From NCBI GenBank assembly GCA_964016885.1, contig OZ024743.1, positions 244,094,001 through 244,158,000 on the forward strand: a stretch of DNA of 64,000 bases, in the 5' to 3' direction. The notes under the pieces are model-generated. The model was not told the DNA's origin. It did no database searches and saw only the letters and a list, made by a program, of their open reading frames with translations. Of this stretch, positions 9,101 to 58,750 are shown piece after piece. The position numbers were made by a program, and so were the translations under genes. This stretch comes from Eledone cirrhosa (lineage: Eukaryota). The stretch's first letter is position 1, and every line of letters starts with the position of its first letter.

Positions 9101-11543
9101 ACAGTGGCACAGTCGGAAAATATAGTCGATATCTATCGGCCAGGTGAAATCGGCCGATTAACTGTTTGAGGCTGTTACACCCCCCTTTATCGGGACATGC
9201 TCGCACATAGTCCCAACGTGCTTCTAGGATTCCATTCCAGTCCCCCACTAAAAGCAAGGAGCGGGACGTTCTGAGAAAAGTCTCTAGACATTTGAAGAAG
9301 TCTGGCCGCGGTGTCCCGGATGGGGCATATGCGGCCACCAGCCTGAAGGCTCCACCTTCACTACCGTCAACGTCTAGGACCACCAGTCGACCCTCCGGGT
9401 TCAGATGTATCGTCTGTGTTACGAGGTCCAGGTGTTTCCGCAGCAAAACAGCAACCCGCCCCCACCACCCGGCTGAAAGAGAGATGCGTAGATCTCAAAG
9501 TCGTCGAAGATGGGGGCCAGCTGTCGCTCGCTGTGGATCCTGGACTCGCAAATAGCTACTACATGCATATTGTGCGACCTGAGGTCGTTTAAGAGTTTGC
9601 CCTATTTCCAGGGCATCCCTAGGCCACGTACATTCACACATCTAACTCTTATATTGGCCATGTTGGTGCTGGAAAGTTAAAAGAAGAGGAAAAGAAATCA
9701 CTCACCTCTTCGTCTCCTGGGGACCAGGCTGCACAATGTCCATGGGGATGTTGGAGGGGTTGTTTGGTAGGGTCCTGGCGGGGTGGGGACGGAGATGTTT
9801 GGAGGGGAGGGGGGGGGGGGGTCTGGTAGGGGGGGGATTGGGTTGGGGAAACGTTTCAAGAGGACGCGGTTCGTTTGTTTAACACACATATCCCCCACGT
9901 CCTCAGCAAAGTTTTCCTTTAAGGACTTATAGGTGTCTGTAGGGACCCTAATCATCCTTAAATTAGGTTTGTCTTTACATTTGGTAAAATATTTTCCTTC
10001 GGTTTCCACGGAAGGGTTTTTGGAGATGACCTTCATCAAGGTTTTATTGTCAGTGTTTATGTATGTATAATATTTTTGTTGTATTGTGTTAGTTTTTGTC
10101 TGTTGTTCTTGTGTGTGTTTTCGTTTTGTTGTGGGTATTTGTGTTTGGAGTGTTGCCATTGTTTTGTTTTCGGGAGGGGGGATTTTTGTTTGTAATGTTT
10201 GTGTTGTTTCTGTTGCCTTTTTGTTCGTGTTATGTCTTTTTTCTTTTTTGGGGGGCGAAGGGGTTCTCCCTCATCATCACGTTGTGGTGTCTGTTTTATT
10301 GGGGAGGGGTACTTTTTGGGGAGCTGTTGTGCTTATGGGTGTTTTGGGAGTTGTTTTAGGGGGGGGAGGGGTTGGGTGGGACTGTGTTTGCAGTTTGGTA
10401 TGTTTTTGTTATTTTTGTGTGTTGTTGTTGTTGTGGTGGTGGTGATTGTGTTGTGTTAGGTGTCGGCAGTAGTGCCTTTTTTTAATGCAGTTAATTGAGG
10501 ACAGGAAGCCCTCAGGTGACCACTGCTTAAACACTGTTAACATTGAAGGCCGCCCACCCCCAACAGAAATGTTTATGTAGGAATTTCCATCCAGAGGCAC
10601 ACGTTGTGGTATTCTAGCTATCCGTTCTAGTCTCATTTGGACCAGAACTTCTAAGCTTGTACCGTTGAATATGCCCCTGGAGGACTTTCCTACCGAAATT
10701 ACTGTATCTTCATCAAAATTGATGAAACCAGCTAATATCCACCAGATGTTTACATTTGGTGTGATATTTGTTACTCTTATTTTTTGGGTCCCTTTTCCCA
10801 TATATGTGAGGAAAAAGGTGTAAAGGGGACACACAATTGGCGACACAGAATATTTTTGTGCTGTCAATTGGTCTTTCATTAGCACCAAAATGCTTCCAAA
10901 AAGTTTACATTTTTGGATGAAGGCAATATCCTTCATTGAATTCTTCAGAACCAGTTCAATTTCGTTTTGAGATAATTGAACTGGTTTTTTAGACACATTT
11001 GAAACTGTCCTAAAATTATTGTTTTTAGGATAGTTTCTCTACGTAACTGTTGAGGAGAAGTGATGCTGAGAGTACCACTCTCACCAAAAGTTACATACTG
11101 CTTTGCATCACTTAACAGCTCCCTAGCATTGGAAATGTCAAGGTATGTAAACAGTTCCGTCTTTTGGACGGTTTGTGCGAAGGAAATCTTTCCCTTGTTT
11201 GTGGAGTTGTTCGTGTTGCTGTTGTTGTTGGTGGTGTTGTTGTTATCATTGTTGCTGTTGTTATTGTTGTCCTTGTTGTCATTGTTGTTGTTGTTGTTCT
11301 TCTTCTTCTTGTTCTGGTTGGTATTGTTTACATTTTTCGGTGTTGGTGTTATAATCAACGTTCGACATCGTGTTTTCAAAACTGACGACATTTTCGACCT
11401 CTTTCAATGAGGTGGTGAGAGGAGATGACTGCGAGCTTAACACTCTTACCGCCTCTCCACCACTTCTAGTACTGGACGCGTCGTTCATGACTGAATGCAA
11501 AATTGTTTACAATTTTTTTCAAACGAAAATTTCACCCCAGTAA
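6124..11543 (-). mobile_element. Tx1-clade LINE family B, near full length (ORF1 about 11488-9702, ORF2 9661-6362, both frameshifted)
   Basis: APE endonuclease (LVGDWN, SYLDR, YSDH), RT (FRPITLLN, KAFDRV, YADD), C-terminal CPRC..H; ORF1 with FFLTYMG, NIWWILAG, QMRLERI. Confidence 0.93.
6362..9661 (-). pseudogene. ORF2 (APE endonuclease plus reverse transcriptase) of Tx1 family B, disrupted
   Basis: Overlapping ORF pieces 8925-9446, 8647-8922, 8339-8650, 6993-8264, 7460-7891, 7169-7438, 6362-6889; ATG at 9661 in CACCAAC-ATGGC context. Confidence 0.88.
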
Positions 11544-19104: not shown

Positions 19105-22016
19105 GATATGTGTGGATGTGGATGTTTTGAGTTGTATGTGTATATGCTTTGTATCTGTACATGTGTATATGCAGTTATTAGATGCAACATTTTTGGAATG
19201 TTTTACATATTTTTACTGTTCCATTAATGGATTGTACTTGTAGTTTCCTAACTAGTTGTGTTCTTTCTGTTCCTGTGAAGCCTAGCTTCTCAAGATTTGT
19301 ATTGAGGCAGTTACTAACATATCCCAGTGCCCCAATAATCACAGGGATAAATCTGAAGGTGTAATCAGGGTGGAGTATCTGCAGATTTCTCATCAGTTCT
19401 ACATAAATATTCTCCTTTTCACTAATCTTTGATATTATATTGGCATCTGCTGGGCAGCTAATTTCCACTACTGTGCATGTTTTCTTCTCCCTGTTCCATA
19501 TCATAATATCTGGTCTGTTATGCCTGCATTTTATTGGGGTTTTTACTGGAACATTCCACCAGTACTCTTTCATATTATGTACATGGATGTCTTCCACATT
19601 GTTGTAGCTTTTAATGTGTTTATTATCGGGGCTATCTTTTTTACGAACTGCATCGTACAGTGTTTTGGCCACTACATCATGCCTTATAGGTAGATAGTAC
19701 CGCGATGACATCTTTGGGCAGCTGCTGATGACATGGGTGATATCCTCGATGTTAGTTCTGCAGAGTCTGCACTTGTTATCACATCTAGGTGTTTTGTCTG
19801 CATCCCTATCTCTTTTTTGAATCAGGTAATTCGTGCTAATCTCCTGTTCTTGGATTGCAAAAGCGTATCCTTCAAAGTGGGAGCCAATATAGCGGTTGTT
19901 GGTCCAAGATAGACTAGTTTCCTTATCTTTATTACTCTCACTCTGGAGATTCCTGGCAACATATCCATGCATGATTTTTTGCTGATAGGCATGCAGTTTT
20001 TCATCCATGGATTCACTGCGATACTGCTGAGCGATATCCCTTGGTGTGAGTTTTTGATTATCACACAGGGAATATCTCTCAAGGAGTTCCTTCCCAACTC
20101 TCGTGATCTTATCTGTTTCATGCAGATAGACTTGCTCGAGAAGCGGGCTCCTACGCTTCGAGGTTCGTAGATGTTGTCGGAGAGATATGATGCGACATTC
20201 AAATGTTGTCTGGACTGATGTTAGGCCTCTGCCTCCCTGCTTACGTTTCAAGTAAAGGCGGTCTATGTCACTGTTGATGTGGAAGTTTGCGGTGTTGTTC
20301 AGTATTTTTCGAGTTCCAACATCAACTGCTCGGATTTTATCTATCGTCCAATTGAGTATTCCAAACGTTGGTGTTAGGACAGGCACAGCAAACACATTGT
20401 GAGCCACTGTTTTGTTTTGCGCAGAGAATTCAGATGACCAGATCTTTCTTAATCGGATGCAGTATTCCCTGGTTACGCGTTCTTTATTACAGATACCATT
20501 ATAGGATATGTTCTCATCTATCCCCAGGTATCTGTAGCAGTCCTCATCAGATATCGGTGAAACAGTTAGACCATTGATGACAATGTTGCTAGATTGGGTT
20601 GTTGTTTTTCCCCGCTTTACAGTCATGTATGAACATTTATCTTGGCCAAACTCCATTCCTATATCCTTTGAGAACGTTGTAACCAGGTCAAGATTTTTCT
20701 TCATCCCATCCATGTTCTTGGCATAGAGTTTCAGATCGTCCACAAAGAAGTTATGGGTTAGGTTTGTATTTCTGTCCTCCTGTGAGCCAATGATGTATCC
20801 CTCACATTTCTTGAGCAGAAAGGACAAGGGGTTTAATGACAAGATGAACAATATCACAGAGAGACTGTCCCCCTGAAATATACCCCTACAATATTTTATT
20901 TTATCAGTGAAAATAGAGTCCTCCCTCTCTGTCTTTAACTTTAGGATAGTAGCCCAAGAAGAAGACAGCCTCTCTATGGCTCTGACAATAATGTCTGGGA
21001 CTTTAGCAAGTTGGAGGGCCTCTATCATCCAAGAGTGGGTTAACAGAATCGAAAGCTTTCTTGTAGTCCAGCCAGACTGTAGCCATATTCCTCCTAAGTT
21101 GTCGCACCTCCGACATCGCAGTTTTGTTGATTAGGAGTTGTTCAGCACATCACCAAACCCTTTTCTTTCCAGCTGCTTGTTCATCTGTGATGATGTTATT
21201 ATTTTCACAGTGATCTTGGAGGAATAGGTTCAGGCAGGCTGTATACATCTTATACATCAGGTTCTGGCATGCAATGGGTCGGTAGTTTTTTGGAAAGTGG
21301 GTGTCTTTGTTCTTGGGGACCAGTAACGTTTGTGCTAATGTCAACCATTCTGCTATAAGTGTATCTCCCTTAAGAACTTGTTGGTAGAGGTCAGTAAGAT
21401 ACTTCCGATATAATATTAGTTTTTTGTGCCAGTAGCCGACAATCATGTCTCTTCCTGGTGTTTTCTTATCTTGGAGTTTTCCTATCACAGTCTCAAGGGT
21501 ACCCTCACCTATTTCGTATGTTTTTGTTGTAGTCTAGGAGCAATAGTTCTTTCGGATTTCTCTTAGCCACACTGCATCTTGGTTGAAATTCTTCTTTTCA
21601 CCCCATATTTTTCTCCAAAAGGAATCTATGTCTTTCTGGGATGGGGCCTCAGTGACACTTATTATTTTTCCCTTCATATCTCTATAGACTGATGTTTGGT
21701 TTCGTCTGAATCTTATTAAGCATTTTTCTCTCATCTACCTTCTTCAGGTATCGGCGTTTTTCGCTAACAGCTCTCAATTCTTGTTTGAGGGTGATCAGCT
21801 TATATTGGAGAGTTCTGGTTCTACTGTTACCAAACATCGTCTCTATTTTATTTTTCACTCTTTGTTGGTGAGGAGTGAGGTTTTTTTGTGTTTGTTTGCA
21901 TGTAAGGAGCATTGTCACATGTCCTATGTTTTTTCGTAGGTCAGCACTCTTTTTTTCTATTTTAGTTATATATGATGGTATTTTTGGTGGTGTTTTGTTC
22001 TTGTTAATATCTCTGC
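19105..22016 (-). mobile_element. R4/Dong-type RLE non-LTR retrotransposon, family 1, 5'-truncated
   Basis: RT ([22 protein letters not shown]), CCHC (CRLC..HVISSC), RHD, PD-(D/E)xK-like RPDIMI..VVEISCP; 5' end abuts (CATA)n on the element strand. Confidence 0.93.
19178..21028 (-). CDS. Uninterrupted 616-aa segment of R4/Dong polyprotein (RT C-half, zinc knuckle, restriction-like endonuclease)
   Basis: ORF track and the motifs above; upstream RT pieces 21150-21918 are frameshifted. Confidence 0.85.
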
Positions 22017-32900: not shown

Positions 32901-33503
32901 ATACACTGCCCGGGCCTTACCGACCTGTGGGGCTCTGTAGAACGACTATTGTCGCGGGTGGGACCAATCCAGTTGACCACCGAGTCCATTGTCATGATCA
33001 AACCGCCACCCTCCTTCAAAAACGAGAGAGAGGCGGTTTTCCTATATGTTATGGCTATGGTGAAAGAGGTTATATGGTGGACGAGGTTAAAAGAGCTGAG
33101 GTCAGACAACTTTCTCTTCGGCGTGCAACTGATTCGTTTTTTCCAATATCATTTTGGAATAAGAATCAGGATGGAGAGAGAGGGGCTGTACCCCAGCAAA
33201 TTTTATAAAATGTGGGTGAATGTGGCAAAGATGGCCCGAGTGGTTGGGCCTTCTCTCTATATAAGCCTGTAGGTTGAAGAAAAAGAGGAAGAGAGGAAGG
33301 GAGTACTCACGCTTGGTGCTCCTGGAGATGGGGGTTCTACATTTTTTCGGGGTGTGTACAACCCCTGTGTAACACCTGCCCCCTATTGGGGATTTCAATT
33401 GTTATTTGTTATTGTATTAATAGTTTTCTTTTCATATACCTGTATGTAAACTCCCCATTTGTATTTGTCCCCTTCTTTTGTGCCCTTGTGGCTAATAAAG
33501 AAA
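29945..33503 (+). mobile_element. Tx1 family B (variant 3' UTR), truncated within the last codons of ORF1; ORF2 30041-33272 disrupted
   Basis: MANIRVGCVNVRGL..ICES..LVGDWN..SYLDR..YSDH APE domain; RT KSPGLDG, KAFDRV, RQGCPLS; flanked by ATCTATCT. Confidence 0.95.
30041..30979 (+). CDS. APE-type endonuclease domain of Tx1 ORF2 (open for 312 aa, then frameshifted)
   Basis: L1-endonuclease motifs present (NVRG, E, GDWN, DR, SDH). Confidence 0.85.
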   Translation: MANIRVGCVNVRGLGMPWKQGKLLNDLRSHTMDVVAICESRIHSERQLAPIFDDFEIYASLCQPGGGGGVAVLLRKHLDLVTQTVYLDPEGRLVVLDVDGSEGGAFRLVAAYAPSGTPRPDFFKCLDTFLGISRSLLLVGDWNGILDARWDYVGACPDKGGCNSLKQLIGRFDLADRYRLNFPTVPLWTWSNRSGTSRSYLDRVLVRNKDRDMLRCPHMFMVAYSDHKLVTCMVNLDRTHRQGPGYWKLNLSLPTCKAYSRRISTLVKLHLTGAIVNNKWWYSRKRAVRLDSIGFSKELVLDRNKAEKETGR

Positions 33504-33529: not shown

Positions 33530-36500
33530 AGGATAGACACATGTGTTAAACTTGCTCGGTAAGTTTTGTTTAAATTTCTTTAGAAATTCGTCATTGGGAA
33601 CTTCTATTTTTATACCAATTTGTAGAGGGAGTGGCAGGTCAAATTTTGATCTGGTCAGTCTCCCAAAATATCATGCCTCTCAGGGCAAAAACATCCAACA
33701 TATTTTCGAAAGATTTTTGCAAAACACTTCAATTTAAAAAAAATGGCCGAAGCAAAGGCACCTACTTCTTTGTCAATACAAGAAGATGGGAAGGGAAAGC
33801 CATGCCTACTTGACCAGCAGATAGTAGCAGACATGGACAAAGGAATGCCAACATTATCGCCTCAATATTTAGAAGCAGAACAAGCTTCAGCTGCTTGTAA
33901 GCAACTGAACACGCCTGACGTCACAAACGTCACATGTATCCACACACAGAAGGAAGAATGTGTAGCAAATACTAACACCACCACAAGCAACAACAACAAC
34001 AACACAATAAATGAGAACAACAACAATACAACAAAAGGAATAAGCGGCCACACAACGAATGAGACCATCATCACCACTAACAACAACAATAAAAAAAATG
34101 TCATTTGCAGCAACAGGATTTTAAATATTACCGCATGGACATTTCCCCAAAGTCCCAAAATTTGGAAGATGCTTCCAACTATGTGACGTTTGAGGGAGAC
34201 ACCCCACACATACACATACCCCCACAAGTAAGAGAGATGACACAGAAAAAGAAACTGATCTACAGAACAGCTGACATCATCACCAAAAAACCCATAACGC
34301 TCCCAACAAGCACTATTGAAGTTGCACTAAAAGATATCAAGCTAGACGTGGCATACCTCCAAAGAGCTAAACAGTATGGAAGTGTGTCAGTGCTCTTTAA
34401 GAGCGAAACTCTGGCTCAAAAACACTTGGTTCACCCAATAAAAACGGATCAACACATCTTCTTCCCCACATACATGGGAAGAAGATCCTACAAAATAAAA
34501 ATAACCAGGATCCCAGCAGTGGTCAACATATGGTGGATCCTACGCTGCACCCTGAAGGATGAGGACACCCTCCTATCTGTAGACCGGAATAACTGGTTTG
34601 GAACCTGCATCGACGTTCTGGTACAAATGAGGCCAGAGAGAGTTGAGAAAATTCCGGACAGGATCGTCCTTGAGGGGAAAAGACCTCAGTGTCATAAGTG
34701 TGGGAAAACCACACACTTACAGGCCTTCTTAAACAAACCGAGGACAAACAAGGGGTTATTACCAACACCAAAACCCCAACATCAACACCCCAAACCAAAC
34801 ACAACACAAAAACCTGCAACATCCACTCCCACACCACCACAGCTCAGAGACAACCACGCACACAGCATCCGACTGAAAACCCCTCCATTGCCTCCTCTCT
34901 CCCTGTCAAATAATTCCACAAACACCTGCACAAACACTCCACCACACAACATACCCCTCCCATTTACCCCTGATTCAGAAGTCTCAGACACGGGAACCTC
35001 TACATCTCCAAGTGAGAATGAAGAGGAACCCCAAAAATCCTAAAAATAAAAAAGAGACAAAAAAAGCACAAAAACATCTACAAAAAACACGCACACACCC
35101 AACCCCACCATAAACACACCGCCACAAACGACAAACACACCAACAACACAATCACCACCAACACAACCAAACACTTCACCAACAAAACAAACACCCACAC
35201 CAACCCCAGCCACAAAAAGAAAACTACAAACAGAAACAGTACACATAAAAACAAAACACATTACACATACATAAAAACAACAAACAAAGAACTAGTAGAA
35301 ACTGTCCGAAAGGACCCTACTATCCAAACGGAAGGGAAAACCTTCCCCACCAACGACGCACCCCCAAACCTCAAACTGATCAGGGTAACAACCCTACAAC
35401 ATGAAACATTGAAAGGGACCTTCCCACATGATGTGGGCTCCCCTTGCCAAAAGACCCTTAACCGTGTCCTGCTAAAAGGATTCCATCCCTCCCCAAACAC
35501 CCTCAATCTGGACATGGAGTTCGAACAATCCGACCTCCAGGAAACGAAAAGGTAAGTGTTCCTGCCTTTTCTCTCCCTAACTCTTCTTCACCAACATGGC
35601 GACTATACAAGTTGGATGTTTGAATGTACGTGGCCTGGGCATGCCCTGGAAACAGGCCAGCTTTTAAATGATCTCAGGTCACATTGTATAGATGTGATAG
35701 CCATCACCGAGTCCAGGATTCACGACCAGCAGCAGCTAACCCCCATGTTCGATGACTTTGAGATCTACGCATCTCTCTGTCAGTCATGAGGTGGAGGGGA
35801 GTTGCTGTTCTGTTTCGAAAAAACTTGGATCTCAAAGCACAGACGATTCACTTGGGCCCAGGGAGCAGCTTGGTGGTCCTGGACGTGAATGGTAGTGAAG
35901 GTGGAGCTTTCAGACTGGTGGCCGTATATGCCCCGACCAGAGTTCTTCAAGCGTCTGGAGCCATTCCTGGGAACGTCTCGCTCCTTAGTGTTAGCGGGGG
36001 ACTGGAATGGCATCGTAGATGCACATTGGGACTATGTAGGAGCTTGTGATAATAAAGGGGGGTGTAATAGCCTAAAAAATCTAGATATCGACTAGACTTC
36101 TCAAGTGTACCACTGTGGAAGTGGAGCAACCGCACTGGGTCTTCTAGATCGTATTTAAATTGATTTTTAATTAGACAGAATGATAAGGAAACATTAAACT
36201 GTCCACAAATGCACATGGTTGCCTATTCAGACCACAAATTAGTCACCTGCGTAGTCAACCTTGATAGAACACATAGACAGGGACCCGGATACTGGAAGCT
36301 AAGCATGTCGCTTCCGGTGCGTAAGGCCTACAGTAAACGGATTAGCACCTTAGTTAAGTGCCAGTTGACGGGGGCGATCGTCTACAACAGGTGGTGGAGC
36401 TCTCTCAAGAGAGTAATTAGAATAGAATCGATAGCATTTAGAAAGGAAGTAGCTTTAGAAAAAAACAAAACCGTAAAGGAATTGGTAGCTAAAGTAAAAG

Positions 36501-38772
36501 AGGCACTTAGGAATGGCAGTACAGCTGACATACTAGCGGCGAGAACAGCACTAGACCAGTTCTTCAACGTGAAACACGACGTGCTCTAAGAAACGAGAGA
36601 GCGAAAGCTGTTAGCTGGGCCTGAGTGGCAGAGACGAAAAATGGAAACAAATCCACAATTCGGTCTTTGCAAGACAAAGATGCACGCATTCTACTTGAAT
36701 CCAAGCAGATGTGCACGGCTTTCCAGCAGCATTTTGCACAACTGTTCGGGCAAAGCGGTACGTCAAGGGAGGTGATGGACTTCAGCTCCTACCTCGACGG
36801 CGAACCACGACTTTCCAGCACGGATGCAGAGCTGCGAAAGGCCGATCATAGTGGGCGAAATAGAAGATGTCCTAGGCCGCTGTGAGAAACGCAAATCACC
36901 CAGTTTAGATGGTCTACCCTATGAGTTTTACATAGGCATGCCAGACTTGTTCTCTGGCGCCCTCGAAGCGGTCTACTGCAACTGGCAGCAGAACGGGAGG
37001 ATTCCCAGTTTTGTAGGCAGAGGCGTAGTAACGCTGATCAGGAAAGATGAAAACAAGGGGGATGAGATAAGCAATTTCAGGCCCATAACTCTGCTCAACA
37101 CAGAGTTAAGATTTTGGCCAAGGTGTTAGCAGCGAGGCTGGCGCTTGTCGTCGGGAACCTGGTAAGGGAAGCGCAAACGTGTGCAATCCCGACCAGGTCC
37201 ATATATGACAACCTCCACCTCATGCGATACATCATAGAGAGGGTAGAGTGTAAACCTGGCTTCGGTGGGGCTCTGATTAATTTAGATCAGTCTAAGGCAT
37301 TTGATAGGGTCGACCATCAATACTTGGAAGCGGTTCTCAAGGCGGCCGGCTTCGGTCCCGTCTTCAGAGGCTGGATCGCTGCCATGCGCACAAGCATCTT
37401 TTCGGCAGTCAAGGTGAATGGCTACCTACCGGAGCCATTCCAAATCATGCGTTCCATCCGTAGGGGGTATCCTCTCTCCCCCATTATGTATGTACTGACT
37501 CTCGAGCCATTACTGCAGAAGGTGGAGCTGTTGCAGGGCATATCGTCCGTCATCTACTACCGCTTGACAGTCATGCCTTGTCCCCGCGAATACCTCACCA
37601 AAATGGAACGCCTACTCTTCAAGTTCCTCTGGAAGAAACAGGCTCCATTGGTGAGGAGTCCCTCTGCTGTCAACACCCTTCTAACGGAGGGCTGGGCAAG
37701 CCGTGGCTGATGATGTGCAAACACACGCTGAGGCTACGCCATCTCCAACCAGTGTGGTTGTCGTTTGTGAGACGAGCTCTTCCACAACTCGTCTCACTAA
37801 CAGAGCTGCAGTCCTGGGTCAAGCGAAGACCGAAAATGGGCGCCTGGCACCTCGAGTGCCTTCAGGCGCACACAGCCCTCTACTAAGCGGAAACGGCAAT
37901 CAGCGGAGATTCCACTTCGACATTCTATAGCGGATTAGTGGAGAATAAGTGCGACGACGTTCTCGGGGAAACTCTAGGCATCGAGGAAGACGAACTGACC
38001 AGTCTGTTCGGGAGGACTTTCCGTCCAGGGCATATGGATAACTTCCACAGGCCTGGCAGTGCTACCGAGCTCTACTAGTTTGAGACAAAGTCTACAGGCA
38101 CGTACGCCCTGGCAGAGATCCTGCCAAAAGGGCCTGTCCAAGATGTGAGCAGGACATCGAAACCGTTCTGCACGCAATTGTTCAGTGCCCAGGGGTGACC
38201 GACCTGTGGAATTATGTCGAACAGCTACTGTCACGTGTAGGACGCATCCAGTTGTCAGCCGAGTCCATCGTGAGGATCACCCCGCCGCCTTCATTTAAGA
38301 ATGAAAGAGAGACGGTCTTCCTCTGTCTGGTGGCTATGGCGAAAGAGGTAATATGGTGAACGAGGTTAAAAGGACTGAGGGCAAGCACCTTTCTCTCCGG
38401 ACAATAACTCATCCCCTTCTTTAAGTAGCACTTCAGAAGGAAGGTGAGAGTGGAGAGAGAGGTGCTACACCCCAGTAAATTCGCTGAAAGGTGGGTGAAT
38501 GTGGCCACTCTGTATATAAACCTGTAGGTTAAGGAAGATAGAGGGAAGACGGGAACACCTACAAAACGTGTTCCTGGTGTTGAGGGTTGTTCTATCCACA
38601 GGGTTGCAAAACAACCCCGCAGTAACGTTACCCACCCCTCATAATGGGGATTTCAATTGTTTTATTTTTATATAGTTTGTTATTTATCATTGTTAAAGAT
38701 TTTATGTAAAACCCCCGCCGTCACGTTTTGTAAAGTCCTATTTTTGTACGCCCATGTGGCAAATAAAGAAAG
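33530..38772 (+). mobile_element. Tx1 family C, full length, decayed (ORF1 33743-35555, ORF2 35596-38527)
   Basis: ORF1 LQRAKQYGSVSVLFKSE, FFPTYMG, CHKCGKTTH knuckle; ORF2 APE and RT fragments; 3' end AATAAAGAAAGAT(ATCT)n. Confidence 0.93.
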
Positions 38773-39096: not shown

Positions 39097-39099
39097 GAC

Positions 39100-42000
39100 T
39101 GACGCGTGAAACATTGCCGGTAAGCTTTTTTGTTAATTTCTATGCAAAAAACCGAACTAATTGTTTGAAAAAAGATATCATTTTGTAGATTAACCCCAAG
39201 CTGAATTGTCAGCTGGGTGGTAATCTCATTTTTCGCCCCTTTAGGGGCGTAGATTTAATTTAAAAATTGTTTTAAAATATCAAATTTTGCCAATTATAAA
39301 ACATGAATAGTTCGGTAAGAACGCTAGAGAACGCCGAGAGCGAGAGAAGAGAGGCAGATATTAACGTTATATCTACTTCTGCTACTATGGACGTCGCCAT
39401 AGATACGACTGTCAACAAAGAGAAAAAAAATATTACCACTTGAAGATTTTAAAATTTCTACCATCGAAGCGGAGAAAAATAACAATAACACACAGTAAAA
39501 ACACAGGAATTAAACCCATTAACATACATACACATGAAAAAGACAACATCAACAACTCCACAGATACATCTACGCATAAAGTTTCACCTCGTCAAGGAAT
39601 TGAGATTTCCAACACGGAGGCTAACAACGATAACAACAACAACAACAACAACAGCAACACCACACAAAAAAAATCTCTTTCGCTGAAACAGTGAACAAAA
39701 AACAAGATTTTATAAATCTTGACATCTCCAATGCAAGAGATATGCTCCAGCAAGGGAGAAAATTTGTAACTTTCGAAGACTAGGGTGGGTTTAGAATTAA
39801 CTCACCCCTCGAAATAAAAGAAGAGACAGTTCGAAGGACAGTGACCTTTAGGACTGTCTCCAACACCACAACGAGAAAGCCAATATTTGTTAGTCATGCA
39901 GATATAGAAGCCAACTTCAAGGAGACTCTAAAAAATATTGACTTTCTCCAACGAGGAAAACAGTACGGAAGTGTTTCCGTACTGTTTAAAAGCGAGGCAC
40001 TCGCCCAAAAACATTCTGTGACACCAATGGTGTCAAAAGCATTCACCTTTTTCCCTACGTACATGGGGAAAAGGACACAAAAAAAAAAATATACCACCAA
40101 ACATTAACATCTGGTGGATCTTGGCTGGCTTCGTAGAGCCAGAGACTGATATGATTCTTTCGATACGAAAGTCTATTAGACAAAGGTGGGCGGGTACTGA
40201 TTTGGAGATTCTGATTCAAATGAGACCGGAGAGAATCTCCAAAATACCCGAAAAAAGTTGTCAACGACGACAACAACAAAATAAACATTACGGTGGAGGG
40301 TCGAAAACTTCATTGCTTTCGCTGTGGTAGCACAGCACACCTAAAGGCCTTCTGTCCTTCACAAACACACCACACCATCATTAAAAAACACTATTACCAA
40401 CACCAACACCAAAACAACCACTACCACAAGTACAACAACAGACGAAACGAGCAAACACACCAAAACAAACAGCCACTCAACCAACAACAACAGAAAAAAC
40501 ACAGACAACACCCCTGAAGAACACAGCCCCACCCATCCCACTCCATCAAACACTACCACAAACACACACACCGAAACACCACCACCACCACATAACATAC
40601 CCCTACCCCACACTCCTGACGATTATTCATCGACAGCTGAGGTTGCTTCTTCTTTAAGTGAAGAAGAAGAAGAGCCTCGGAAATCTAAAAAAACAAAAAA
40701 AGAGACACCACAAAACCCACAAAACTCCAATCACCAACACCAACACACAACCACAGACACAAACAACAACACAAACAACACCACAGTCAAACATGCCCCT
40801 ACCAGCAAAACCAACACCAACACCACCCCAAACAAAAGCACCCACCATAAAAAGAAAACTCCCGGACGAACAACAAACTAAAACAACACAACAAAAACAC
40901 AAACAACAATACGCATACATCAACACAAACAACAAGAGTTTGATGAAGGTGGAGACGAGGTGGGGGCAACACTTTCGTCAAAGCAGAATCGTCTCCACAC
41001 CTTAAACTTATAAGGGTTTCTATGGAGACCTATAGTGACCTGAAAAATAAATTTTCACAAGACGTGGGCAACCCCTGCCAGAAACCCATCAACCGCGTCC
41101 TATTAAAATGTTTCCCCATCCCACCCAACACCCCATCCAGCACCCAAATAGAGATTGAACAACCCGATCTCCAGGAAACGAAAAGGTAAGTGCACCTTTC
41201 GTCCTTTTTCTCCAACTTTTCTTCACCAACATGGCTAGTTTACGAGTTGGAAGTGTGAATGTGCGTGGCCTAGGAAACAGGGCCAACTTTTAAACGACCT
41301 TAGGTCACACGGTATGGATGTGATAGCCATCACCGAGTCCGGGATCCACAACAGGCAGCAACTAACCCCCATCTTCGACGACTTTGAGATCTACGCATCT
41401 CTCTGTCAGCTAGGAGGTGGAGGGGGAGTGGCTGTCAAGTTTCGGAAGAACCTGGACGTCGAAGTACAGCAAGTACACTTAGACCCGGGGGGTAGACTGG
41501 TATTCCTAGACGTGAACAGTATTGGAGGTGGAGCCTTCAGACTGGTGGCCGTTTATGCCCCGACCGGGCAATCGCAACCACGGCCAGACTTCTTTAAGCG
41601 TCTAGAGTCTTTTCTGGGAACATCTCGCTCCTTACTTTTAGTGGGGGACTGGAATGGTATCCTATGTGGGAGCATGTCCCAGTAGAGGGGGGTGCAACAG
41701 ACTCAAAACTTTAATCGGCCAATTCCAACTGGCCGATAGGTATCGACTGGATTTCCCGACTGCACCACAGTGGAGGTGGGAAAACCGCAGCGGGACATCT
41801 AGATCGTATTTAGATAGGTTCTTCATTAGAGAAAGGGACAAGATGTTAAGCTGTCCACGAATGCACATGGTTGCCTACTCAGATCACAAATTAGTCGTCT
41901 GCTTAGTCAACCGTGATAGAATACATAGACAGGGACCCGGATACTAGAAGCTGAACGTGTCGTTGCCGGCACGTAAAGCTTACAGTGAACGGATAAGTAG

Positions 42001-44558
42001 ACTAGTCAAGCAACAGTTAACGGGAGCCATCGTCAACAATAGATGGTGGTACTCTCTCAAGAAAGCAATTAGAGTAGAATCGATAGAGTTTAGCAGAGAG
42101 TTAGCCTTAGAGAAAAACAAAATAGAATGAGAACTAGTAGCCAAGGTAGAGGAGGCACTTAGAAGTGGCGACGCGGCTAGAGTGTTAGCGTCGAGAACGG
42201 CACTAAACCAGTTCTTCGACTCGAAACACGAAGGCTGCGTAGTCAGAAGCAAAACACGTGCTCTAGGAAACGAAGGAGCGAAAGCTGTTAGCTGGGCTCG
42301 AGTGGCGGAAGCAAAAATGGCAACAAATCCACGATTCGGTCTTTGAAAGACCAAAACGGACGCGTGCTACTTGACCCCAAGCAAATGTGCGTGGCCTTTC
42401 AGCAGCACTTTGCGCGACTGTGAGCAGAAACAGGTTAATGGACTCTAGTTCATACCTCGACGGCCTGCCGCGTCTCTCGAACACGGACGCCGAGTTCTGC
42501 GAAAGACCGATCACGAACCTGGGCCGCTGCGGGAAAGGCAAGTCACCAGGTCTAGATGGTCTACCCTATGAGTTTTACATAGGCATGCCGGACTTGTTCT
42601 TTGGCATCCTCGAAGCCGTCTATTGCAATTGGCAGCAGAACGGGAGAATTCCCAGTTCTGCAGGCAAGGGCGTAGTAACGCTGATCAGGAAAGACGAGAA
42701 CAAGGGGACGAAATTAACAACTTCAGGCTCATAACACTGCTCAACACAGAGTTAAAGATATTGGCCAAGGTGCTAGCGACGAGGTTGGCGCTTGTCGTCG
42801 AGAACATGGTAGGGAAAGCGCAAACGTGTGCAATCCCGACCAGGTCCATACACGACAACCTCTACCTCATGCGATACATCTTAGAGAGGGTGGGTAGTAA
42901 ACCCGGCTTCCGTGGGACTATGATCAATTTGGATCAGTCTAAGGCATTCGATAGGGTCGACCATTGTTACTTGGTAGCGGTTCTCAAGGCGGCCGGTTTC
43001 GGTCCCGTCTTCAGAGGCTGGATCGAGGCGATGCACACCAGCATCTGCTCGAGGGTCAAGGTGAACGGCTACCTATCGGAGCCGTTCGTAATCACGCGTT
43101 ACATTCGACAGGGGTGCCCCCTCTCCTCCATTCTGTATGTATTGACTCTAGAGCCACTACTGCGGAAATTGGAGCTGTTGCAGGCATCCCACTAGAACCT
43201 GGACTGCGCAAAGCGGCGTCAGCTTATGCCGACGACGTGACGGTAATGGTGTCGCGCACATCTGAAATCGGGGTGATCGGCAACTTACTGAAAGAATACT
43301 AAACGCTGACGGGAGTAAAACTAAACTCGGACAAATCTGTCGGTTTCCAACTCGGTACGTGGAGAGGCAAACCGATGACGTCCGACAGCGTCGTTGGACG
43401 CTGGAGGGACGGACCAGTTAAATTGCTCGGGGTCTGGTTCGGTCCAGACCTCCAGGTGGAGAGAAACTGAAACGAGGTCACGGCCGAGGTGTTTGCGCTC
43501 ACCCAAAAGTGGGCAGAGTGCAAACTGTCCTTGAAAGGTCGAGCGGAGGTGGCGAACACTTTCATAGCGTCCGTCATCTACTACCGCTTGACTGTCCTGC
43601 CTTGTCCCCGTGAACACCTCACCAAGATGGAACGCATACTCTTCCAGTTTCTGTGGAAGAAGCAGGCTCCGCTGGTGAGGAGATCCGTCTGATGTCAGCA
43701 CCCTTCCAACGGGGGGCTGGGAATGCCGTGGCTGAATGTGCGCAAACATGCGCTGATGAGCTCACCAGTCTGTTTGGTAGGACTTTCCGCCCGGGACCTA
43801 TGGACAACTTCCAGAGGTCCCTGGCCTGGCAGTGCTACCGAGGAGCTCTACCGGTTCGTGACAAGATCTACAGGCACGGACGCCCTGGCAGGGATCCTTC
43901 CAAGAGGACGTGTCCAAGATGTGCGCAGGACATTGAAACAGTCCTGCACGCATTTGTACTCTTCCCGGACGTAAGCGACCTGTGGAACTATGCAGAACAA
44001 CTGCTGTCGAGTATGGGACAAATCCAGTTGACTGCCGAGTCCATAGTAAGGATCAAACCGCCAGCCTCTTTCAAAAACGAATGAGAGGCGGTTTTCCTCT
44101 GTACAGTGGCTATGGTGAAAGAAGTTATATGGTGGACGAGATTGAGAGGACTGAGGACAGATGCCTTTCTCTCCGGACAACAATTGACTCCCTTCTTTAA
44201 GTATCACTTTAGAAGGAGAATCAGAGTGGAGAGAGAGGCACTGCACCTCAGTAAATTTACTGAAAGGTGGATGAATGAAGCGAAAATGGCCCGAGTGATT
44301 GGGCCTTCTCTGTTTATAAGCCTGTAGGTTGAAGAAGAGAGCAAAAGGAAGAAAGGAGCACTTGCACAACACGCTCCTGGAGTTGAGGGTTGTTCTATCG
44401 ACGGGGTATTAAACAACCCATTTGTGACGCTTCCCCCTATTGGGGATTTCGATTGTTGTAATTGTTTGTTTTATATTTTTTACACGACTGAATGTAAAAT
44501 CCCCCACATATCTTTGTATTGTCCCCTTTTCTTGTGCGCCCTTGTGGCAAATAAAGAA

Positions 44559-45967: not shown

Positions 45968-47471
<1,504 letters not shown>

Positions 47472-47922: not shown

Positions 47923-50900
47923 TTCTGGTTTTATAATTTCACAAATGTTTTACCAATAGAGGGAGAGTCGGTTTCTAACATAGACACAAGACTCTCTCAT
48001 TGGAATTTACACATCAACTTGGTAGATATATATGTATGCATGCATGTGTAGATATGGATGTTATTGTATGTGTGGATGTGGATGTTTTGAGTTGTATGTG
48101 TGCATGTGTATATGCTTTGCATCTGTAGATGTCTATATGCAGTGATTAGATGCAAAATATTTGGAATGTTTTACATATTTTTACTGTTCCATTAATGGAT
48201 TGTACTTGTAATTTCCTAACTAGTTGTGTTCTTTCTGTTCCTGTGAAGCCTAGCTTCTCAAGATTTGTATTGAGGCAGTTACTAACATATCCCAGTGCCC
48301 CAATAATCACAGGCATAAATCTGAAGGTGTAATCAGGGTGGAGTATCTGCAGATTTCTCATCAGTTCTGCATAAATATTCTCCTTTTCACTAATCTTTGA
48401 TATTATATTGGCATCTGTTGGGCAGCTAATTTCCACTACTGTGCATGCTTTCTTCTCCTTGACCCATATCATAATATCTGGTCTGTTATGCCTGCATTTT
48501 ATTAGGTTTTTTACTGGAACAATCCACCACTACTCTTTCATATGTACCTGGATGTCTTCCACATTGCTGTAGCTTTTAATGTGTTTATTATCGGGGCTAT
48601 CTTTTTTACGAACTGCATTGTACAGTGTTTTGGCCACTACATCATGCCTCATAGGTAGATAGTACCGCGATGACATCTTTGGACAGCTGCTGATGACATG
48701 GGTGATATCCTCGATGTTAGTTCTGCAGAGTCTGCACTTGTTATCACATCTAGGTGTTTTGCCTGCATCCCTATCTCTTTTGTGAATCAGGTATTTCGTG
48801 TTAATCTCCTATTCTTGGGTTGCAAAAGCCTATCCTTCAAAGTGGGAGCCAATATAGCGGTTGTTGGTCCAAGATAGACTAGTTTCCTTATCTTTATTAC
48901 TCTCACTCTGGAGCTTCCTGGCAACATATCCATGCATGATTTTTTGCTGATAGGCATGCAGTTTTTCATCCATGGATTCACTGCGATACTGCTGAGCGAC
49001 ATCCCTTGGTGTGAGTTTTTGATTATCATACAGGGAATATCTCTCGAGGAGTTCCTTCCCAACTCTCATGTTCTTATCTGTTTCATGCAGATAGACTTGC
49101 TCGAGATACGGGCTCCTACGCTTCGAGGTTCGTAGATGTTGTCGGAGAGATTTGATGCCACATTCAAATGCTGTCTGGACTGATGTTAGGCCTCTGCCTC
49201 CCTGCTTACGTTTCAAGTAAAGGCGGTCTATGTCACTGTGATGTGGAAGTTTCCGGTGTTGTTTAGTATTTTTCGAGTTCCAACATCAACGGCTCGGATT
49301 TCGTCTATCTTCCAATTGAGTATTCCAAACGTTGGTGTTAGGACAGGCACAGAAAACACATTGTGAGCCACTGTTTTGTTTTGCGCAGAGAGTTCCGATG
49401 ACCAGATCTTTCTTAATGGGGCGTAGTATTCCCTGGTTACGCGTTCTTTATTACAGATACTATTATAGGATATGTTCTCATCTATCCCCAGGTATCTGTA
49501 GCAGTCCTCATCAGATATCGGTGAAACAGTTAGGCCATTGATGACAATGTTGCTAGATTGGGTTGTTGTTTTTCCCCGCTTTACAGTCATGTATGAGCAT
49601 TTATCTTGGCAAAACTCCATTCCTATATCCTTTGAGAACGTTGTAACCAGGTCAAGATTTTTCTTCATCCCATCCATGTTCTTGGCATAGAGTTTCAGAT
49701 CGTCCACAAAGAAATTATGGGTTAGGTTCGTATTTCTGTCCTCCTGTGAGCCAATGATGTATCCCTCACATTTCTTGAGCAGAAAGGACAAGGGGTTTAA
49801 TGACAAGATGAATAATATCACAGAAAGTCTGTCCCCCTGAAATATTTTATTTTATCAGTGAAAATAGAGTCCTCCCTCTCTGTCTTTAACATTAGGATAG
49901 TAGCCCAAGAAGAAGACAGCCTCTCTATGGCTCTGACAATAATGTCTGGGACTTTAGCAAGTTGGAGGGCCTCTATCATCCAAGAGTGAGGAACAGAATC
50001 GAAAGCTTTCCTGTAGTCCAGCCAGACTGTAGCCATATTCCTCCTAAGTTGTCGCACCTCCGACATCGCAGTTTTGTTGATTAGGAGTTGTTCAGCACAT
50101 CCCCAAACCCTTTTCTTTCCAGCTGCTTGTTCATCTGTGATGATGTTATTATTTTCACAGTGATCTTGAAGGAATAGGTTCAGGCAGGCTGTATACATCT
50201 TATACATCAGGTTCTCGCATGCAATGGGTCGGTAGTTTTTTGCCAAGTGGGTGTCTTTTTTCTTAGGGACCAGTAATGTTTGTGCTAATGTCAACCATTC
50301 TGGTATAAGTGTATCTCCCTTAAGAACTTGTTGGTAGAGGTCAGTAAGATACCTCCGATAGAATATCAGTGTTTTGTACCAGTAACCGACAATCATGTTT
50401 CTTCCTGGTGTTTTCTTATCTTGGAGTTTTCCTATCACAGTCTCAAGGGTACCCTCACTTATTTCGTATGTTTTTGTTGTAGTGTAGGAGCAATAGTTCT
50501 TTCGGATTTCTCTTAGCCACGCTGCATCTTGGTTGAAATTCTTCTTTTCACTCCAGATTTTGCTCCAAAAGGAATCTATGTCTTTCTGGGATGGGGCCTC
50601 AGTGACACTTATTATTTTGCCCTTCATATCTCTATAGACTGATGTTTGGTTTCGTCTGAATCTTTTATTAAGCACTTTTCTCTCATCTACCTTCTTCAGG
50701 TATCGGCGTTTTTCGCTAACAGCTCTCAATTCTTGTTTGAGGGTGATCAGCTTATATTGGAGAGTTCTGGTTCTACTGTTACCAAACATCGTCTCTATTT
50801 TATTTTTCACTCTTTGTTGGTGAGGAGTGAGGTTTTTTTGTGTTTGTTTGCATGTAAGTAGCATTGTCACATATCCTATGTTTTTTCGTAGGTCAGCAAT

Positions 50901-52188
50901 CTTTTTTCTATTTTAGTTATTTATGATGGTATTTTTGGTGGTGTTCTGTTCTTGTTAATATCTCTGCTATCACCAAGATAATGCTTCACTCTCGTTGCTA
51001 AGGCATATAAACAGGCGTTGATTTGCCAAAATGTTGGGGTTTTTATCCGTCGTAAATATTCATCCCCTATTTCGTCAATAACACGTAATATTTCATTATT
51101 TGGTTTTATTTATTAAACATTGTCGTTTTAATACGTTCAGCAAGATAGATATTTATACATGAATTTATTTCTCTCTGGAAAATTTCGTTGAGGGAAAATT
51201 TCAATTGTTTATACTTCTGATTATTATCATTATCGATAGTATTTTCCACAACAGTCGAGGTAGACTCGAATGGTACACGTGGTGTCAAATTTCTTCGATT
51301 ATTATTATTATCGATAGTGTTTTCCCCAGTATTCGAGGTAGACTTAGATGGTACAGGTTTCTTACAGGCATAGTTGTTTCAAGGCACTGTTCGACTTGGC
51401 TGCTAGGAAGTCTAGTAGCACGGCAACCTGTAGCACGTGTTGTTGATAACATGTTTGTTGTGGGGGACTTACAATTAATAATATTTATCTTATTTTTACG
51501 TTCAACAAACATCGCTTGTTGGCGAAATTGTTTCGCTGTGAAATAATTTAGCTCTGGGTGTATTTCGTCCCCGTGTAGCTTCATTCTGTTCAAATAGCCA
51601 ATGGAGGGATTGTTTTTTGCCATTTTATAACAATTAAATAAATCATTATTAAGTTCGCAAGGCGGTGGATTGGCAGTATCGGTAGAGGGTCGGACGCCAT
51701 GCTTTCCAGCATAGTTACGTCCCTTTACAATCTGAGTTCAAATCCCGCCGAGGTTGACTTTGCCTTTCATCCTTACGGGGTCGATAAAATAAAGTACCAG
51801 TAATGCACTAGGTAATTGCTGGCCTTGTGCCTAAAGTAGAAACAATTATTAAGTTCGCAACTCCAAGAGAAATGCGATTTATAATTTCGGTTTCTTCTGT
51901 AGCTACAACTGAACAAAGTTTGTTTACCTTCCTTGTTATTTGTCTTCGATACTCCCTTAATTTTCTTGTTGATGTTGTGTTCAGCCATGCTGTTTGTAGC
52001 AAATCCTTGTAAAATGAATTATGTATTTAGTCGGATATATCTACGAATTCGAATAAAAGGTGTCTTCAGAAGATATAGTTAGAAGAATAACCAGTTATTC
52101 AACATGACTGTAGTTGTGGCATTACTCCCGGAGATAGTATTCATCTTAAATTTAATAAATAGTCTCCCACGACTGATCGCGTTGACTG
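47923..52188 (-). mobile_element. R4/Dong family 1, apparently full length, decayed; single ORF from 51988 to 48146, interrupted by a SINE
   Basis: N-terminal W..ELN..L..CY..A..GY..RM..P motif, RT (WLDYRKAFDSV, FFVDDL), CCHC, RLE; (CATA)n at both ends on the element strand. Confidence 0.93.
51661..51844 (+). mobile_element. tRNA-derived SINE inserted in the R4 ORF with a 16-bp TSD
   Basis: ATTATTAAGTTCGCAA at 51645-51660 and 51845-51860. Confidence 0.93.
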
Positions 52189-57312: not shown

Positions 57313-58750
57313 GATGTAATTAGGTGGCTACGACATGGTGCGCCGCGAAATATAATTAGGTGCAACACCAGATGTAATTAGGTGCGCCACCAGATATAAT
57401 TAGGTGCGCCACTAGATATAATTAGGTGCGCCACTAGATATAATTAGGTGCGCCACCAGATATAATTAGGTGCGCCGCCAGATGTAATTAGGTGCGCCAC
57501 TAGATATAATTAGGTGCGCCACTAGATATAATTAGGTGCCCCACTAGATATAATTAGGTGCCCCACTAGATATAATTAGGTGCCCCACTAGATATAATTA
57601 GGTGCGCCACCAGATATAATTAGGTGCGCCACCAGATATAATTAGGTGCCCCACTAGATATAATTAGGTTCGCCGCCATATGTAATTAGGTGCGCCACCA
57701 GATGTAATTAGGTGCGCCACCAGATATAATTAGGTGCGCCACCAGATGTAATTAGGTGCGCCACCAGATATAATTAGGTGCGTCACCAGATGTAATTAGA
57801 TGCGCCACAAGATATAATTAGGTGCGCCACCAGATATAATTAGGTGCCCACTAGATATAATTAGGTGCCCCACTAGATGTAATTAGGTGCGTCACCAGAT
57901 ATAATTAGGTGCCCCACTAGATGTAATTAGGTGCGCCACCAGATGTAATTAGATGCGCCACTAGATATAATTAGGTGCCCACTAGATATAATTAGGTGCG
58001 CCACGAGATGTAATTAGGTGCCCCACTAGATGTAATTAGGTGCGCCACCAGATGTAATTAGATGCGCCACAAGATATAATTAGGTGCCCACTAGATATAA
58101 TTAGGTGCGCCACGAGATGTAATTAGGTGCCCCACTAGATATAATTAGGTGCCCCACTAGATGTAATTAGGTGCGCCACGAGATGTAATTAGGTTCGCCG
58201 CGAGATGTAATTAGGTGCCCCACTAGATATAATTAGGTGCCCCACTAGATGTAATTAGGTGCGCCACTAGATATAATTAGGTGCGCCACCAGATGTAATT
58301 AGGTGCCCCACTAGATATAATTAGGTTCGCCGCCAGATGTAATTAGGTGCGTCGCAAGATATAATTAGGTGCGCCACCAGATATAATTAGGTGCGTCACC
58401 AGATGTAATTAGGTGCCCCACAAGATGTAATTAGGTGCGCCACCAGATATAATTAGGTGCGTCACCAGATATAATTAGGTGCGCCACAAGATATAATTAG
58501 GTGCGCCACAAGATATAATTAGGTGCGCCACCAGATATAATTAGGTGCCCCACTAGATATAATTAGGTGCGTCACCAGATATAATTAGGTGCGCCACCAG
58601 ATATAATTAGGTGCGCCACCAGATGTAATTAGATGCGTCACCAGATATAATTAGGTGCCCCACTAGATATAATTAGGTGCCCCACTAGATATAATTAGGT
58701 GCCCACTAGATATAATTAGGTGCCCCACTAGATGTAATAACGTGCGTCAC
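57313..58750. repeat. 22-bp tandem satellite, about 65 units, consensus GATRTAATTAGGTGCSCCACYA
   Basis: Direct reading; occasional 21-bp variants. Confidence 0.97.

Follow-up and report, generated by a model that had tools for sequence, protein, structure and literature searches.

A length-conserved, putative 5′ UTR intron retained in genomic copies of Tx1-like LINEs of Eledone cirrhosa

Elements in the window and their classification

The 3.0-Gb genome of Eledone cirrhosa is rich in microsatellites, and in the stretch analysed here (hereafter the window; 64,000 nucleotides of contig OZ024743.1, positions 244,094,001 to 244,158,000 of the forward strand) two-ORF non-LTR elements are clustered and nested within (TATC)n runs. 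Two of these, both lying within (TATC)n, display full 5′ ends: a Tx1-like LINE of family C at 33531..38771 (+), which is frameshifted and internally deleted, and a degenerate copy of a Tx1-like LINE of family A at 39097..44558 (+). A family B copy with a 5′-truncated start is found at 11491..11540 (-), and neighbouring elements yield three further families, termed C′, D and E. Of 145 anchored copies, 126 have a TATC repeat within the 30 nt preceding their 5′ end, and the 3′ ends of the elements continue into TATC.

Profile searches identified in ORF2 the domains Exo_endo_phos (E 1.6e-08) and RVT_1 (E 5.9e-25), together with a C-terminal zf-RVT whose match (E 1e-05) falls just below the cut-off, while zf-CCHC matches in two of the six ORF1-region pieces scanned (E 0.001 and 0.008) are both below the cut-off; Tx1 elements typically have a separate ORF1 that bears a zinc knuckle of the CCHC type. 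Among solved structures, ORF2 is best matched by human L1 ORF2p (E 4e-34), with R2 at 5e-17, and its only named homologue is a hypothetical protein of Argonauta hians, 60% identical. The Tx1 label, which derives from the original prediction and from features typical of the group, is reasonable but provisional. The elements carry an APE-type endonuclease and two ORFs, and neither the GIY-YIG endonuclease nor the pseudo-LTRs that define Penelope-like elements; they are not members of that class, and the resemblance to Penelope lies at most in intron retention.

Nucleotide identity of ORF2 between families ranges from 74 to 93%. The families exchange 5′ modules and ORF2s (L101, L183 and L046): a C-type 5′ end occurs with a B-type ORF2, and C and C′ have similar UTRs, yet their ORF2s are 74% identical, a mixture pointing to probable recombination within tandem arrays. 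Given their shared ancestry and swapped 5′ modules, the six families amount to roughly three UTR lineages that are independent of one another.

A GT-AG segment of conserved position and length in the 5′ UTR

In families C and A the segment starts at a distance of 24-32 nt from the boundary of the (TATC)n run. In family C, a putative exon 1 (33531..33558, +; about 28-32 nt after the TATC boundary) is followed by a putative intron 1 of 67 nt, GTAAGT...TAG (33559..33625, +), which extends from CG/GTAAGT at 33559 to TTTGTAG at 33625. In family A, a putative exon 1 of about 24 nt (39097..39119, +) precedes a putative intron 1 of 69 nt, GTAAGC...TAG (39120..39188, +), with CG/GTAAGC at 39120, CTAAT at 39157 and TTTTGTAG at 39188. 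Both segments agree in position and length with the original prediction, which had read them as an intron-like segment conserved between two diverged families. A third, weaker pair that it proposed for family B (11535 and 11491, minus strand, 45 nt) is not the counterpart of these segments: the B copy of the window starts only at 11540, past the place where the real segment would lie. Full-length B copies located elsewhere carry TG/GTAAGT...TTTTATAG, 68 nt long and placed as in A and C; the TG/GTAAG anchor was found in 26 of 30 B loci, with a YAG at 65-72 nt in 23 of these 26.

Measured from the donor to the nearest AG that lies 30 nt or more downstream, the distance is 67 nt in C (26/30 loci) and C′ (20/20), 69-70 nt in A (19/29), 67-69 nt in B (21/26) and E (13/20), and 69 nt in D (19/20), one A and four B loci without the anchor having been left out; the loci were found by segment-containing queries, and the sample leans toward segment bearers. 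Most departures correspond to new private AGs in decayed copies, and the A copy of the window has one such extra AG at 39173. Of the 145 anchored copies, likewise recovered by queries that contained the segment, 142 have an intact GT and 138 a YAG at 65-72 nt. Apart from the A copy of the window, the representative copies examined in the six families have no AG in the last 40 nt of the segment, and the acceptor is preceded by a T-rich, AG-free stretch, which in family D is hairpin-bound. As for branch-point words, CTAAT occurs in part of A and TTAAC/TTAAT-like words in B and D, none of them aligned across families; the CTAAT at 39157 is common neither to all A copies nor to all families. Regarding the host, genome-wide counts of the donor-acceptor pattern were 131 versus 99 for the control at 50-80 nt and 143 versus 102 at 81-111 nt, with no clear short-intron length peak between 50 and 111 nt.

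Conservation relative to chance, and the displaced pair of family D

In dinucleotide shuffles of each UTR, the configuration (GTAAG, with the first AG that is at least 30 nt away and preceded by Y lying at 65-71 nt) was obtained in 21-134 of 20,000 sequences, and 30 of 737 other GTAAG sites in the DNA examined satisfy the spacing rule. The identity of segment interiors between the C/C′ and the A/B/E lineages is 0.43-0.62, for shuffled means of 0.47-0.54, and 0.64-0.76 within lineages; G/GTAAG and TAG are invariant in the five families C, C′, A, B and E.

Family D is colinear with the others and has CC/TCAAGT and TAA at the shared donor and acceptor positions. Its own pair consists of A/GTAAGT, 38 nt further downstream, and a TAG about 31 nt further downstream, the two lying 69 nt apart, so that its donor is at +64 versus +25-38 elsewhere; its shuffle rate is 134 of 20,000. 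By ORF2, D is the sister of C′ (88%), so its state looks derived, although, with 5′ modules swapped among these families, other orders of events are possible. The D acceptor falls in hairpin 1, within its 3′ arm, where structure constrains the G-run; because this AG is inside a conserved hairpin arm, it is weaker as an acceptor, and D may have kept a donor only.

Predicted hairpins and other features of the 5′ region

The original prediction had also held that the rest of the UTRs shows little similarity, which is correct for the sequences themselves; the UTRs are nevertheless colinear homologues with the same layout and a common block of two predicted hairpins. This block extends from the acceptor in family C (33626..33690, +) and follows the acceptor in family A (39189..39256, +), and its predicted shape is kept with differing letters in six families (L131-L150), with fold z values of -4.2 to -6.7 in a 75-nt window picked after viewing; the second hairpin is missing from most family E copies. 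A strong hairpin begins 0-1 nt past the acceptor and may keep splicing partial.

Masking of the donors by local hairpins was rejected as a general mechanism, being inconsistent across families: the predicted cost of opening donor 1 exceeds that of shuffles in E (4 of 300), C′ (17) and B (23), and weakly in C (47), and does not in D (169 of 300) or A (288), and for donor 2 it does so only in D (18 of 300). An upstream ATG hidden by the intron was likewise discarded, as C could gain an in-frame exon-1 ATG (by eye) and A, B and E are without one. Regarding known RNA families (SL RNA, snRNA, HDV-like ribozyme), no Rfam match with E ≤ 1 was obtained at the 5′ ends. Separately, five of the six families display, about 5-15 nt inside the 5′ boundary (33533-33545 in the window, and equivalents), a word that fits RGWYV, which we take to be the DPE consensus; were this DPE-like word genuine, the transcription start would fall in the TATC run upstream.

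Retention in genomic copies and search for spliced forms

Copies with and without the segment, a comparison suggested together with the original prediction, number 455 and 0 in four families (C 83/0, A 212/0, B 51/0, D 109/0), as counted with paired exact 10-nt anchors on each side, "without" meaning a gap of 0-6 nt, and with C′ and E outside the paired count. The 95% upper bound on spliced copies is 0.66%, and under the human SpIRE rate of 1.8% the result has P = 2.6e-4. That unspliced RNA serves as the template fits these copy counts, although such a reading would be meaningful only if splicing occurs, since zero spliced fossils are equally expected from a segment that is never spliced.

Among exon-1 copies with a non-G next base (1 for C and 7 for A) there was no junction, and the genome search for donor 1 or acceptor 1 joined elsewhere, which misses junctions whose next base is G, returned only point mutants and small indels. 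A foreign exon on acceptor 1 gave no matches for A and two for C/C′, both of them intron-bearing point mutants; this search would also have detected a spliced C′ copy. In contigs from a sequencing run that may be of DNA or RNA, the C and A segments appear unspliced, and none of the joints listed (15 of 491 and 15 of 16) falls at the segment, which speaks neither for nor against splicing. Distant metagenome relatives (21-47% identity; 80 loci, 22 with a readable ORF pair) showed GTRAG over the upstream stop in 1 of 22 and a GTRAG-AG spacing of 66-69 nt within 350 nt upstream in 2 of 22, both too few to call.

Further splice-site-like motifs at the ORF1 stop and at the end of ORF2

In all six families, the ORF1 stop is found inside a near-perfect AG/GTRAGT (window; L172-L190). 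The site in family C is AAG/GTAAGT (35549..35557, +), whose TAA is the ORF1 stop (35552); that of family A overlies the ORF1 stop at 41186 (41183..41191, +); and in family B GAG/GTGAGT (9700..9708, -) overlies a TGA stop (9705), the stop having changed from TAA to TGA with the donor consensus maintained, with a further B copy of the site at 29997 (+). Between this second donor and the ORF2 ATG there is a pyrimidine-rich spacer of 27-46 nt. At the end of ORF2, acceptor-like sites are located at 38505..38527 (+) in family C, consisting of pyrimidines followed by CCTGTAG, and at 44305..44327 (+) in family A; the pyrimidine-rich CCTGTAG at the ORF2 end is also present at 33272 and at other 3′ ends (L190, L172, L175 and L185). 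Furthermore, in all four families tested the best predicted pairing partner of the donor-2 flank is the beginning of the 3′ UTR (-44 to -55 kcal/mol), as the best of about 270 windows per family; the predicted pairing spans 3.4 kb, and the letters on both sides are family-specific.

The original prediction had envisaged that the 5′ donor could be joined to an acceptor before ORF2, giving a subgenomic ORF2 message. This proposal is not supported, as the interval from the ORF1 stop to the ORF2 ATG contains an AG in B alone and none in the other five families; the anatomy points instead to a possible ORF1-only spliced message. For copies lacking ORF2, the look covered those 44 of 76 donor-2 variants with a non-G next base, and a junction at the ORF2-end acceptor begins with G and thus escapes it. 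A short in-frame intron from donor 2 to YAG/G at ORF2 codon 28 (111-128 nt) had no exact genomic junction at up to 2 mismatches; one copy (L210/L243, C2:135302707), which retains the 5′ segment, carries a deletion from donor 2 to codon 28 that is one base short of the exact junction and is ambiguous.

Interpretation and alternative explanations

The intron ends, the fixed length of 67-69 nt with diverged interiors, the retention in 455 of 455 copies, the second donor-like site and the acceptor-like site at the end of ORF2, taken together, make a real intron likely. As regards the reading of the original prediction, intron anatomy and genomic retention were borne out and extended to six families, and splicing remains putative. 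We hold it about evenly balanced that the segment is a real, incompletely spliced 5′ UTR intron, whose spliced RNA would likely make the ORF1 protein and of which only the unspliced RNA would be copied.

The layout that we infer comprises two introns, namely a short exon 1, intron 1, the remaining UTR with ORF1, intron 2 corresponding to ORF2, and the 3′ UTR. Spliced RNA would be the ORF1 message, with intron 1 presumably aiding export or translation by analogy with Penelope, and ORF2 protein would be produced only from RNA that retains intron 2. RNA escaping splicing would do so at both sites, through a putative coupling of the two introns, and the cis preference of the ORF2 protein would then result in the copying of fully unspliced RNA only. 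The splicing itself and the intron coupling are presumptive steps of this scheme, as is the benefit of intron 1. A bolder and more tentative version, to which we would not commit, is that these elements are canonical, target-primed LINEs organised as two-intron genes with a retrovirus-like splicing switch, in which fully spliced RNA yields ORF1 protein and fully unspliced RNA yields ORF2 protein and is the sole template, the intron having slid by about 31-38 nt in one family with its 69 nt kept, and the introns surviving without exception.

An alternative that is possible, if doubtful, is that the donors are docking sites for U1 snRNP without productive splicing, the acceptor being incidental or rarely used; docked U1 could keep the A-rich ORF1 region from being polyadenylated prematurely, could stimulate transcription or, where elements stand in tandem arrays, could silence the poly(A) signal of the element upstream. 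The 0 of 455 spliced copies would be explained at no cost, and so would the donor being the one feature present in all six families, even in D, which is without the shared acceptor, and the position of the second donor at the ORF1 stop, with no nearby acceptor in five families. Each full-length copy also contains 2-9 sense AATAAA/ATTAAA words, most of them within the UTR and ORF1, and in the EVD element U1 is described as preventing premature termination of unspliced RNA (PMC5580714). Docking leaves unexplained why a TAG is invariant at 67-69 nt, why the 40 nt before it are free of AG and why D has its first AG at 69 nt; moreover, docking and splicing are not mutually exclusive, as the EVD donor is also spliced according to the same account (PMC5580714).

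We consider it improbable that the segment is a DNA-level internal promoter, with factor-binding sites at a fixed spacing that merely resemble splice sites. Its situation less than about 100 nt from the 5′ end, where LINE promoters are located, and the lack of spliced copies would both be accounted for, and a conserved, seldom-used donor of L1 has been described as kept for promoter activity (PMC5860796); however, the motif is at +64 in D rather than at +25-38, it appears again 2 kb downstream at the ORF1 stop, and both ends follow the sense-strand splice consensus around an unconstrained interior. Finally, chance motifs of one ancestral AT-rich UTR, inherited without selection, are a very unlikely explanation, for although all families have a single ancestor and 30 of 737 background GTAAG sites satisfy the spacing rule, between lineages the interiors have drifted to shuffle level and yet the length and eight letters at the ends have stayed the same, and D has a new pair.

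Relation to known systems and significance

A real, incompletely spliced intron would have its closest counterparts in Penelope-like elements, in which introns persist through retrotransposition, a behaviour described as peculiar to them and of unknown cause (PMC8557442). Penelope of D. virilis is reported to have a 75-nt intron 46 nt from its start, mostly spliced and retained in copies, whose deletion abolishes reporter protein and not RNA (PMC2377424), and Chlamys-3_cRei has a 398-nt 5′ UTR intron (PMC8557442). Like both of these introns, the present segment is a short GT-AG stretch that lies a few tens of bases inside the element, overlaps what is presumed to be the internal promoter, is retained in genomic copies and shows conservation among diverged relatives; in contrast, their hosts are GIY-YIG elements with pseudo-LTRs whose splicing is documented by RT-PCR or Iso-Seq, whereas the present elements are two-ORF APE LINEs with putative splicing.

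Human L1 is likewise an L1-group LINE with a long-conserved donor near its 5′ end, at +98 in a RUNX3 site; its RNA is described as mostly unspliced, with rare 5′ UTR splicing that leaves about 2% spliced fossils, the rate for SpIRE97/622 being 1.8% (PMC5860796). It differs in having several acceptors hundreds of bases away, against one conserved acceptor at 67-69 nt here, and in its spliced fossils, about 2% against 0 of 455 (PMC5860796). In the Ty1-copia element EVD of Arabidopsis, a donor also lies at the end of the ORF for the structural protein, making a message for that protein alone possible, and it additionally binds U1, which protects the full-length RNA, in parallel to the second donor described above; EVD is, however, an LTR element in which splicing and the role of U1 were tested by mutation, and its site is at the Gag end rather than in a 5′ UTR intron (PMC5580714). 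The Tx1-clade elements Kibi and Koshi share two ORFs, an APE endonuclease with RT, and microsatellite-specific insertion, their targets being (TC)n and (TTC)n, respectively, versus (TATC)n here, and no intron in Tx1 elements is known from their description (PMC4494074).

Retained 5′ UTR introns in Penelope-like elements and splice sites in L1 are thus already known. We found no report of a retained, length-conserved 5′ UTR intron in a Tx1 or cephalopod LINE, in a search with most subscription journals and Repbase reports outside its scope; functional splice sites in zebrafish LINEs were reportedly the subject of a 2007 paper. If true, a retained and partly spliced intron would imply that ordinary LINE machinery distinguishes unspliced from spliced RNA, contrary to what cis preference predicts and in contrast with human L1, whose spliced RNA gets copied, and these families would offer a compact test system for template RNA choice and for the ratio of ORF1 to ORF2 protein. 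Should docking of U1 alone be true, the elements would represent a LINE using U1 sites for protection.

Other features of the window

The segments 19144-22016 and 48112-50967 are two inverted copies, 96% identical, of another element that encodes an RT and has no relation to the Tx1-like families; a piece of this element interrupts a Tx1-like copy elsewhere (L099). A weak match to the hammerhead ribozyme HH9 at 47022-47093 (36.5 bits for a gathering score of 52; E 1.4e-05) lies between inverted repeats and adjoins the RT-bearing element at 48112-50967, which is possibly Penelope-like. The window also contains a minisatellite at 57337-58750, with a 22-nt unit in 64.5 copies and 89% matches.
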